A stretch of DNA of 64,000 nt. It comes from Escherichia coli (GTDB taxonomy: Bacteria; Pseudomonadota; Gammaproteobacteria; Enterobacterales; Enterobacteriaceae). The stretch lies in the NCBI RefSeq assembly GCF_003018235.1, contig NZ_CP027437.1; one strand, given 5' to 3'. The translations under genes were made by a program, and so were the position numbers. Below are positions 18,709-20,226 of the stretch, in pieces (within the stretch, counting starts at the first letter, position 1; every line of letters begins with the position of its first letter). Under the pieces are notes generated by a model, which made no database searches, had not been told where the DNA came from, and saw nothing but the letters and a program-made list of their open reading frames with translations.

Positions 18709-18984
18709 TCACTTCTGCGGGTAGTTGCGCCATACTGCTTTACCAATACCAGCTATCCCCATTTGTTTTTCAGTGCGATTAACTGACCTTTTCAGAGCGC
18801 CTAAATCATCCGGCGGCTCCGGTGGCCTCTGTGCCTTCCTGGAACATTCCTGCCGTCGCATTGCCACCTGTGCGCGTTCCTTGTCTGTCTCCACCAGCAT
18901 CATCACTTCACCCCATCGCGCCGCCGCCCTCCTGTAAAATCCTTTCGCCTCGAGTTCCTCCGCTATACGGTCATGTACCATCAT
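18709..18984 (-). CDS. PerC-family-like small transcriptional regulator (91 aa)
   Basis: N-terminus MMVHDRIAEELEAKGFYRRAAARW resembles PerC-family proteins as I recall them; start overlaps integrase stop. Confidence 0.55.
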   Translation of the reverse strand: MMVHDRIAEELEAKGFYRRAAARWGEVMMLVETDKERAQVAMRRQECSRKAQRPPEPPDDLGALKRSVNRTEKQMGIAGIGKAVWRNYPQK

Positions 18985-19985
18985 TCACCACCTCCCGCAG
19001 ATGGCGATAAGCTGGCTTTGCCTCCAAGTGGATTAAACCTTATCGCCTCTGTCAGAAAATCCGGCGCAAAATGCGCGTAAACCATTGTCTGTTGTATGCT
19101 CGCGTGCCCCAGTATCCTTTGCAGTGTGATTATATTCCCCCCGTTCATCATGAAATGTGTCGCGAATGTGTGCCGTAATACGTGGGTGGCCTGGCCTTTT
19201 GGTAAGTCCGGTTTTACTGACTTGATGACCTCCCTGAACTCCAGATAATCCACATCAAACAACTGTCCCTTTTTACCTCTCGTTACAAGTTCCAGAACGT
19301 CATCAGACACCGGAACAGCTCGCGCCCGTCCGTTCTTCGTCTCCGTAAACATTACCTTGTTACTGACTATATTTTCCCGTCGTAGCGTCGATGACTCCCC
19401 ATAACGCGCCCCCGTCGAAAGACACAAAACAGCCAGCGCGAGACAGTCGCCTTTGGCAATATTCAGTAAATGATTAACCTCATCATCACCAAGAAAACTC
19501 ATAGCCTTGTTTGGTGCTTTCAGCTTGCGTAATCCACTCAAAGGGTTTTCACCGTGATACATACCGCATTCGATTAGCCCCCTGAACATTCCTGATATAA
19601 CCGACAAATCACGGTTAACAGTCAACGGACTAAGGCCGCATCCCAGCTTGTCGGCTCTGTATTCCATGAGCATTGCGCGGGTTATGTTGCAGATTCGTGG
19701 ATCCCCCATTTCACGGATAACCTTCATCATGCGCATAAACGATTGTTCGCCGTATTCCTCCGATCTTCCGATAAACTCCATCCATAAGTTAGCCAGATCA
19801 GATAACAGGCGAATATCTGCGGCGCGTGACTCCCAGGGCTTATTATGACAATGAAGCAGTATGTATTTTTCGTAATCACGGGCTTTTGTCTGCGAGGGAA
19901 AAATCTTTCTTATCCGTCGCCCGTAAGCGCCATTTGGCCTTACGTCAACCAGCCAGCGACCATCCTCACACTTCCTTATCGCCAT
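18981..19985 (-). CDS. Tyrosine recombinase, P2-Int-like (about 334 aa)
   Basis: MAIRKCEDGRWLVDVRPNG... and C-terminal HVLRHTFATHFMMNGGNIITLQRILGHASIQQTMVYAHFAP closely resemble phage P2 integrase as I remember it; start moved to MAIRK. Confidence 0.85.
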   Translation of the reverse strand: MAIRKCEDGRWLVDVRPNGAYGRRIRKIFPSQTKARDYEKYILLHCHNKPWESRAADIRLLSDLANLWMEFIGRSEEYGEQSFMRMMKVIREMGDPRICNITRAMLMEYRADKLGCGLSPLTVNRDLSVISGMFRGLIECGMYHGENPLSGLRKLKAPNKAMSFLGDDEVNHLLNIAKGDCLALAVLCLSTGARYGESSTLRRENIVSNKVMFTETKNGRARAVPVSDDVLELVTRGKKGQLFDVDYLEFREVIKSVKPDLPKGQATHVLRHTFATHFMMNGGNIITLQRILGHASIQQTMVYAHFAPDFLTEAIRFNPLGGKASLSPSAGGGE

Positions 19986-20226
19986 GCTCCACACCCTTAA
20001 CGTTGATGGTTGTTACCTGTTCCGCTTCGGCTATCTCCCGTTCGGTCAGCGTGGCAAAGTTTGCCGCCGCTGTGGTCATGAATGCGCTTATCAGTTCGGG
20101 ATGTGCTTTCGCGTATCCTTCTCCCGTGTTGCGGTCTATCGTTCTGATTGCCACCTTTAAGGCGTGCTCTGTCATGTCTAATGCGCGATATTTTGGCGCT
20201 GCCTTATCTCTGGTTTTTCTGGTCAT
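19966..20226 (-). CDS. Hypothetical protein (86 aa)
   Basis: ORF immediately downstream of iteron array and overlapping P2-like int start. Confidence 0.4.
   Translation of the reverse strand: MTRKTRDKAAPKYRALDMTEHALKVAIRTIDRNTGEGYAKAHPELISAFMTTAAANFATLTEREIAEAEQVTTINVKGVEHGDKEV

Follow-up and report, generated by a model that had tools for sequence, protein, structure and literature searches.

Positions 18709–19994 of a 64,000-nucleotide stretch of Escherichia coli DNA (assembly GCF_003018235.1, contig NZ_CP027437.1; the whole stretch is called the window) hold two overlapping genes on the minus strand, one for a small PerC-family regulator and one for an extra P2-type tyrosine integrase, within what we read from gene content as a Gram-negative phage-inducible chromosomal island (PICI), a phage satellite, in a tRNA-Pro gene. 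In the open reading frame (ORF) listing, the regulator gene, perC of the pchE type, spans 18709–18984 (91 amino acids (aa), or 90 from a second ATG at 18981), with exactly the coordinates given in a preliminary description of this DNA. The integrase gene, which we call int2, spans 18981–19994. Its product has 337 aa if read from a GTG and 334 aa if translation begins at the ATG at 19985, the probable start and the one annotated by RefSeq in a near-identical genome.

The int2/perC junction sequence is GGGAGGTGGTGAATGATGGTACATGAC. The TGA of int2 shares bases with the first perC ATG, giving an ATGA overlap, and the second ATG abuts directly, giving TGATG; this arrangement (GAATGATGG) is kept in a diverged E. 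coli island (L011, compared below). The overlapping stop and start that the preliminary description had noted are therefore real, as is the close approach of the downstream repeat, here repeat B, which begins 19 nt past the perC stop; neither these features nor the gene identities are due to chance. The same description had also taken the two genes to be translationally coupled. The geometry of the overlap would allow this. A GGAGGT Shine–Dalgarno sequence belonging to perC sits within the 3′ end of int2, perC is preceded by its own Shine–Dalgarno sequence in every arrangement seen in related islands (whether int2, ssb or no gene separates it from the first gene of the operon), and the junction RNA folds no better than shuffled sequences (z = −1.5 and +0.5). 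Since perC has a strong ribosome-binding site of its own and the junction lacks significant structure, coupling is possible rather than demonstrated.

Membership of the PerC family was confirmed by profile search. The product matches Pfam PF06069 over its full length (E = 6.5e-39; a score of 132.5 bits, the cutoff being 22.6; residues 2–90 aligned to profile positions 1–89 of 90) and PHROGs family phrog_994 (E = 1.6e-42), and it has both the size (91 aa) and the LE..G.YRRA..RW motif of the family. Across 69 PerC-family members, L10, E11, G14, R17, R18, A19, R22 and W23 are invariant or nearly so, and the N-terminal half as a whole is strongly conserved in the family alignment. A protein with 95.6% amino-acid identity in strain SCU-111 is annotated in RefSeq as ‘PerC family transcriptional regulator’, and the family, with 113 clusters at 50% identity, is a small one. 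The AlphaFold model of the protein is all-helical (predicted local distance difference test score, 85.7), with neither a helix-turn-helix fold match nor any significant fold match in the PDB (best Foldseek E = 1.7), and no sequence relative was found in the PDB, so that no mechanism can be drawn from structure. The model is consistent with a small adaptor-type regulator, although it proves nothing in that respect.

The integrase is as clearly P2-like as had been described. It carries Int_N (8.1e-25) and Phage_integrase (2.8e-19) Pfam domains; its best phage matches are integrases of Peduoviridae (P2-like phages), at 58% identity; and its closest structures are the PDB entry 5c6k (E = 1.2e-85), labelled only ‘Integrase’ in the search and which we take to be the P2 integrase, and the HP1 integrase 1aih (4e-44). 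It resembles the P2 (5c6k/5dor) and HP1 (1aih) enzymes in length (334–337 aa), in its MAI(K/R)K...DGR region, in its domains and in its catalytic residues (R, K, HxxR, H and Y), all of which are intact. Its setting is another matter. The int gene of a P2-like prophage is found at the end of the element beside attP, downstream of the C repressor and with cox divergent, and the Peduoviridae relatives of int2 show this usual layout of C repressor, int and cox; int2, by contrast, is internal, has coding sequence on both sides, and lies away from any element end with attP and a C/cox switch.

The two genes form the distal two-thirds of a three-gene operon in the order 86-aa ORF, slot gene, perC. 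The first gene (19966–20226, minus strand; phrog_1231, E = 6.7e-48) is the ortholog of O157 ECs1586, and its orthologs precede ssb or perC in related islands. Those islands share the order RepA, replication origin (ori), 86-aa ORF, perC and late zone, and vary in what separates the 86-aa ORF from perC: the slot is empty in strain 4 and in 2014C-3097 (L002 and L004), holds ssb in O157:H7 EC4115 (L005) and in CFT073, and holds int2 in the window, in SCU-111 (L001) and in a single diverged island of E. coli (L011). Homology between islands stops exactly at ...ATCAACGTTAA / int2 / ATGGTACATGAC, and because it breaks precisely at the int2 ends, the insert is essentially one ORF. Of 5,426 complete E. 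coli genomes, one has int2 DNA, compared with about 1,380 for the flanking genes and at least 700 for the hyp-(ssb)-perC arrangement (for which the empty-slot and ssb counts overlap, nearby pieces having been joined in the search); perC is thus the resident gene and the integrase the guest. The operon ends in an intrinsic terminator hairpin on the minus strand at 18685–18702 (AGCCGGAGCAATCCGGCT followed by TTTTTT; a 7-bp stem with 5 GC pairs and a T-run in the terminator scan), the position of which after perC is kept in related islands.

Rare as it is, int2 is not decaying. In the diverged island L011, which also lies at proL, the same three genes occur with identical junctions at about 82.5% DNA identity to the window, and the comparison of the two gives an omega (dN/dS, the ratio of non-synonymous to synonymous divergence) of 0.075 for int2 (dS 0.85, dN 0.064), as against 0.37 for perC (dS 0.463, dN 0.172), 0.36 for the 86-aa ORF (dS 0.276, dN 0.099) and 0.115 for RepA (dS 0.46, dN 0.053). 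The gene is held by strong purifying selection. This bears directly on the view that int2 is a functionless hitchhiker, a recent accidental capture heading to decay that has no bearing on PerC. Such a view would account for its presence in a single complete genome and for the lack of any attP, cox or C partner, and extra late-zone integrases in PICIs have already been noted as prophage captures (PMC10111431). Yet two lineages about 17% apart in DNA keep int2 at full length with identical junctions, its constraint at a dS of 0.85 is tighter than that on perC or RepA, its catalytic residues are all intact with the exact protein on 45 contigs, and related integrases occupy the same primase–ori–int position in Salmonella PICIs at several chromosomal sites. 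We disfavour the hitchhiker view, which seems very unlikely.

Those Salmonella PICI integrases are the next-closest relatives of int2, at 66% identity, and their islands have the order primase, ori, int, 66-aa ORF and protease/capsid fusion, without perC. A PICI-only clade of P2-like integrases was considered and is unestablished, because the Salmonella PICI integrase is equally close to the integrases of P2-like prophages (66–68%) and to int2 (66%). P2-like integrases 60% identical to int2 were also seen at the ends of two further satellite-like elements of Salmonella (L015 and L016, positions 1–8000 of each), which have a P2-type capsid gene and a DUF927/Toprim primase; one (L016) lies beside mug/rpoD, probably at the ileX site, and the other (L015) is flanked by an antitoxin/toxin pair, a gene with a phosphoribosyltransferase domain and a carbonic anhydrase gene. 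The order primase, ori, P2-like int recurs across satellite types. Occasional extra integrases in the PICI late zone, related to prophage integrases, were described in a study of helper-embedded PICIs (PMC10111431). Like int2, these are second integrases that have their relatives among prophage enzymes and no kinship with the main integrase of the PICI; unlike them, int2 lies in the replication-zone operon upstream of perC, and whereas theirs relate to helper prophages, the packaging sites in the window point to lambdoid or Shiga toxin (Stx) phage helpers and int2 to the P2 family.

Those packaging sites are the two direct repeats that flank the capsid gene, repeat A (16040–16150) and repeat B (18590–18712), which share 84% identity across about 100 nt. 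Read along the transcribed strand, both begin with a terminator hairpin, and after it comes a conserved element that we identify, from alignment with lambda and other phages, as a lambda-type cos packaging site rather than a promoter-bearing repeat. cos A (16040–16150, minus strand), delimited by the alignment with lambda and other phage cos sites and by BLAST copies in islands and in a helper prophage, comprises the terminator hairpin, cosQ (GGGTCCT), cosN and an A-type cosB-like part; cos B (18590–18684, minus strand) comprises cosQ, cosN and a B-type cosB-like part, by comparison with the same phages. The lambda cos junction, GGGTCCTTTCCGGTGATCCGACAGGTTACG/GGGCGGCGACCTCGCGG, and that of the repeats, GGGTCCTCCTGGT...CCACG/GGGCGGGTCGGCGCGG, align base for base over cosQ and cosN, and the expected cohesive end is GGGCGGGTCGGC. 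Stx2 phages, VT1-Sakai, CP-1639 and mEp460 carry this element too, about 100–140 nt upstream of terS in the interval that separates terS from the lysis genes, and it occupies the corresponding interval in the Stx2a prophage of strain 2014C-3097 into which a sister island is inserted. cosQ and cosN are identical in cos A and cos B, which are in direct orientation. Their cosB-like halves differ, that of repeat A resembling phage Stx2d_112808 and that of repeat B the 2014C-3097 prophage and mEp460, and the two types may let helper terminases of two specificities package the island.

Having two cos sites also accounts for a deletion variant that occurs in nature. In E. coli GCA_019379415 (L027, 11270–11545), an island with int2 and perC is missing exactly the 2.55 kb between the repeats (the 75-aa gene and the protease/capsid gene), and a precise hybrid junction joins the left half of cos B to the right half of cos A, the crossover falling inside cosN. 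Recombination of one cos copy with the other would fit this, as would terminase cleavage of the two, and the variant lends indirect support to cos cutting by a helper terminase and to helper-driven induction and transfer of the island. In the promoter scan no promoter-like site was found on the minus strand downstream of either repeat, and across the island promoter-like matches were as frequent as in shuffled sequence (12, with 12.5 expected). Folding of the RNA from cos B to the 75-aa gene gave no interpretable structure (z = −2.2). Rfam, run over the whole window at gathering thresholds and over the island at E ≤ 1, gave no C4, isrK or P4-CI-type RNA and nothing at the repeats. On the plus strand at 18372–18487, where cos B and the 75-aa gene are separated by a spacer, a promoter-like TTGACG-18-AATATT has a strong plus-strand terminator (14-bp stem, 18444–18477) about 45 nt beyond it; the pair could delimit an antisense RNA some 80 nt long, with no Rfam match.

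These results allow the model of the preliminary description to be weighed, in which PerC is produced together with the recombinase of the element, activates promoters associated with repeats A and B, and so links recombination to island expression. Its parts are real and were correctly named: the overlap and the common operon exist, and the 75-aa and capsid genes lie behind a terminator without a recognizable promoter of their own, so that some activator or read-through is needed. The assembled picture of a recombination-linked regulator of repeat promoters is nevertheless not supported, and we consider it very unlikely. The repeats are, as far as can be judged by alignment, cos sites common to helper phages that have no PerC gene, and minus-strand promoter-like sites are lacking downstream of both. 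The integrase of the island itself is a different gene, of P4 type; int2 is a supernumerary gene, placed where the perC operon varies, for which no recombination reaction was identified, so that co-expression with recombination has no reaction behind it. Moreover, perC stands without such an integrase in most related islands, and the Salmonella relatives have integrase and capsid module but no perC; since each gene occurs without the other the two are not functionally tied.

A better guide to perC is its counterpart in O157:H7, pchE, of which both position and sequence mark it as the ortholog. The PerC protein of OI-51, which is PchE (PMC3378721), is 72.5% identical in strain EC4115 to that of the window, the first 50 residues being almost invariant and the C-terminal third differing. 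pchE (ECs1588) is carried by OI-51, also called Sp7 or CP-933C (the PICI EcCIEDL933), which in EC4115 sits between phoQ and ycfD, and it too is the last gene of an operon following RepA and ori and is succeeded by a late capsid zone. The neighbours differ: upstream lies ssb in O157 and the P2-type integrase in the window, and downstream a lambda E-type capsid gene with a decoration protein gene and terS in O157 and a protease/capsid fusion in the window. pchE messenger RNA is polycistronic and starts 10 nt upstream of ECs1586, 675–700 nt upstream of pchE (PMC7369912), and the distance of 679 nt that we measured in the EC4115 island (L005) matches the published one. Expression of pchE is steady in the uninduced state and lowered by SOS induction, and its over-expression raises flhDC, fliC and further flagellar genes and lowers csgD (PMC7369912). 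PerC genes are common in PICIs of Gram-negative bacteria and E. coli (PMC6092414; PMC11773190) and occur also in commensal strains and strains negative for the enterocyte-effacement locus (LEE) (PMC3378721). Both the gene, a PchE-type perC, and its carrier, a Gram-negative PICI, are accordingly of familiar kinds, and RefSeq already annotates the gene as such.

Better-known relatives are more distant. The plasmid PerC of enteropathogenic E. coli (EPEC) and PchA, PchB and PchC of enterohaemorrhagic E. coli (EHEC), which activate LEE1/ler, share with the window protein the PF06069 domain, a length of about 90 aa and carriage on mobile elements, and the plasmid PerC proteins are at most about 44% identical to it. 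According to PMC11773190, LEE1 is activated by EPEC PerC and PchABC, unaffected by the EDL933 and CFT073 PICI copies and repressed by EcCIMP1_025. Because PICI-borne homologs are without effect on LEE1 or repress it, activation of LEE1 by the window PerC is not to be assumed.

We regard it as probable that the locus is a PICI three-gene operon in which a pchE-type perC acts on the host, int2 is a guest kept by selection, and the repeats are cos sites. In the uninduced state perC would share a transcript with the genes ahead of it, driven by a promoter within the ori region, by analogy with O157; the transcript would start near 20236 and stop at the hairpin at 18685–18702. PerC, a small all-helical protein, would then act in trans on host regulatory genes (flhDC, csgD and ler in O157) as a lysogenic-conversion function. 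int2 would have been gained as an ORF-sized cassette from the P2-integrase family, entering a slot that most relatives leave empty or fill with ssb, and would be co-transcribed, possibly also translationally coupled, with perC and selected for a recombination function. Repeat B, downstream of perC, would serve as a helper-phage-type cos packaging site, and repeat A as a second one. Of this picture, the comparisons establish which genes are present, their overlap, the layout of the island, the variability of the slot, the selection on int2 and the cos nature of the repeats; the operon promoter, a host-directed action of PerC and any activity of int2 are predictions.

PerC could instead be primarily a regulator of the satellite life cycle, a late-expression switch or a modulator of helper genes, its effects on host virulence genes being side effects. 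The gene is fixed as the last before the cos/late zone despite differing replication, slot and capsid modules, it occurs in commensal and LEE-negative strains (PMC3378721), and the N-terminal half of the protein is strongly conserved. The expression of the O157 ortholog, on in uninduced cells and down on SOS induction (PMC7369912), is however the opposite of that of a late activator; perC is missing from Salmonella PICIs that carry the same capsid module; and PICI induction has been ascribed to AlpA (PMC10111431; PMC11773190). We judge a life-cycle role of this kind rather unlikely.

Several points weigh against the host-acting operon that we favour. perC stands at the boundary between replication and late zones in hundreds of genomes, LEE-negative ones included, which a satellite life-cycle role would also fit; the operon promoter in the window is a prediction from homology with O157; and PerC homologs differ in their effects, so that the targets of the 72%-identical window protein are uncertain. 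As for int2, no attP, cox/xis or C-repressor partner was found for it in the window or island, comparison of the att side of the closest phage with the window gave chance-level matches only, and no non-coding sequence is shared between the integrase-bearing islands of E. coli and Salmonella. All nine int2-bearing places examined have the same gene order and lie at proL, the site of the P4-type integrase; no second integration site was seen among the nine, and nothing therefore shows that int2 acts.

A bolder version of the favoured reading, which we hold only tentatively and think less than probable, makes int2 a domesticated satellite gene with a satellite-specific reaction, part of a lysogenic perC/pchE operon in which perC is the fixed partner and which, together with two cos sites of different helper specificity, would define a multi-phage PICI subtype. 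Candidate reactions would be the making or resolving of PICI multimers for cos packaging; integration at a second site, in a helper or in a P2-like prophage; and interference with the integration or excision of P2-like phages.

The surrounding island agrees with this setting. The chromosomal order is nap, ccm, narP, yejO, island, proL, yejM, yejK and rplY, and comparison with the empty site of K-12 MG1655 delimits an island of about 10.3 kb between 9-bp cores GCACGAGAG at 15323–15331 and 25656–25664. The left flank of MG1655 aligns up to 15339 and the right flank from 25648, overlapping on the attachment (att) core; the left core duplicates the 3′ end of the tRNA-Pro gene, and the right core is that 3′ end itself, in proL (tRNA-Pro(GGG), 25650–25726, minus strand; ARAGORN and Rfam). 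A 26-nt direct repeat, CCGTATAAC... (15392/25494), was tried as the att site and rejected, as the K-12 empty site shows the core to be GCACGAGAG and places these repeats inside the island. Clusters of CGTATAAC and GTTATACG repeats at 15392–15417 and 25461–25519, just inside the island ends and beside the promoter region of the P4-type integrase, are probably arm-type binding sites for the integrase or for AlpA.

All main genes of the island lie on the minus strand. The P4-type integrase (24190–25449; NCBIfam NF007246, E = 1.3e-166; phrog_1 integrase) is the island's own and lies beside the att site, and downstream of it follow a 68-aa AlpA-family regulator (23478–23684; the equivalent gene in islands L023 and L025, 99.98–99.99% identical to this one, carries PF05930 Phage_AlpA), an Icd-like/Bro zone, a DUF4222 gene of the RgdR family of small regulators (21825–22121; Pfam 7.7e-13), a RepA-family replication helicase (20428–21828; AAA_25, 5e-42; phrog_2850, E = 8e-253) and the origin (20227–20427), with AAAAGTGAGG iterons (20238–20429) around an AT-rich centre and the inferred operon promoter, in a layout conserved in five islands. 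Next come the 86-aa ORF, int2 and perC, and, after the terminator and cos B, a 75-aa gene that overlaps the start of the capsid gene (18056–18283; phrog_4934, E = 2.5e-48), a fusion of a ClpP-like prohead protease and a major capsid protein (16170–18065; CLP_protease, 1e-32; Phage_capsid_4, 3e-54; NF045540, E = 4.5e-265), cos A and a conserved 93-aa last gene (15621–15902; phrog_1561, E = 1e-54) found at the same end of all related islands. The 75-aa product is possibly a small DNA-binding protein, and a homologous 66-aa gene takes the same position in Salmonella PICIs.

This is the anatomy expected of a PICI: int beside att with alpA downstream, genes on one strand, a replication module of its own (RepA AAA_25) followed by an iteron origin, and about 10 kb with a helper-phage packaging signal, no lysis or tail genes and the protease/capsid fusion as the only structural gene. 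It matches the four-zone layout described for Gram-negative PICIs (PMC10111431), and, as in those, the order int, alpA, Bro/Icd, replication with iteron ori and capsid late zone (EcCICFT073, EcCIEDL933, EcCIMP1 and helper-embedded PICIs), the length, the tRNA integration and the helper-type cos are shared. Terminase, portal and connector genes are absent from the late zone, which holds the fusion and two small ORFs, so that the island is not a capsid-forming PICI (cf-PICI). It differs from these in having no rpp gene, a copied helper cosB-like part, two cos sites of different cosB type, and an extra integrase within the perC operon.

Further observations concern individual genes and sister islands. 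The 353-aa ORF at 22412–23473 (minus strand) is probably spurious; the near-identical SCU-111 record annotates there an Icd-like gene, two small plus-strand genes (one of the YlcI/YnfO family, one hypothetical) and a portion of the AlpA region. The EC4115 ortholog of the DUF4222 gene encodes 99 aa with RGD at residues 20–22, as described for RgdR/ECs1581; the window copy has KGD in its place, and residue 20 matters for activation of the type III secretion system according to the literature. The AAAAGTGAGG iterons become AAAAGTGGG in strain 4 with the architecture kept, which suggests that iteron and RepA specificity co-vary among sister islands. The sister island of 2014C-3097 (L004, 6040–15515) has perC, lacks int2, carries a different integrase and lies inside terL of a Stx2a prophage that has a matching cos and a homologous protease/capsid fusion, which makes it an island of the helper-embedded kind (PMC10111431).

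PerC/Pch regulators tie mobile elements to the virulence, motility and biofilm programmes of E. coli, and the identification of this perC as a PchE-type PICI gene determines which literature applies to it and warns against assuming activation of LEE. The only unexpected and modestly novel part of the perC locus is int2, a phage-type recombinase kept intact inside a satellite operon without a visible substrate and shown here to be under purifying selection; if it acts, it could alter satellite integration, multimerization or the interplay with P2-like phages. A second point of interest is that the two cos sites differ in their cosB-like parts, which yields the testable idea that one satellite may exploit two helper terminase specificities.

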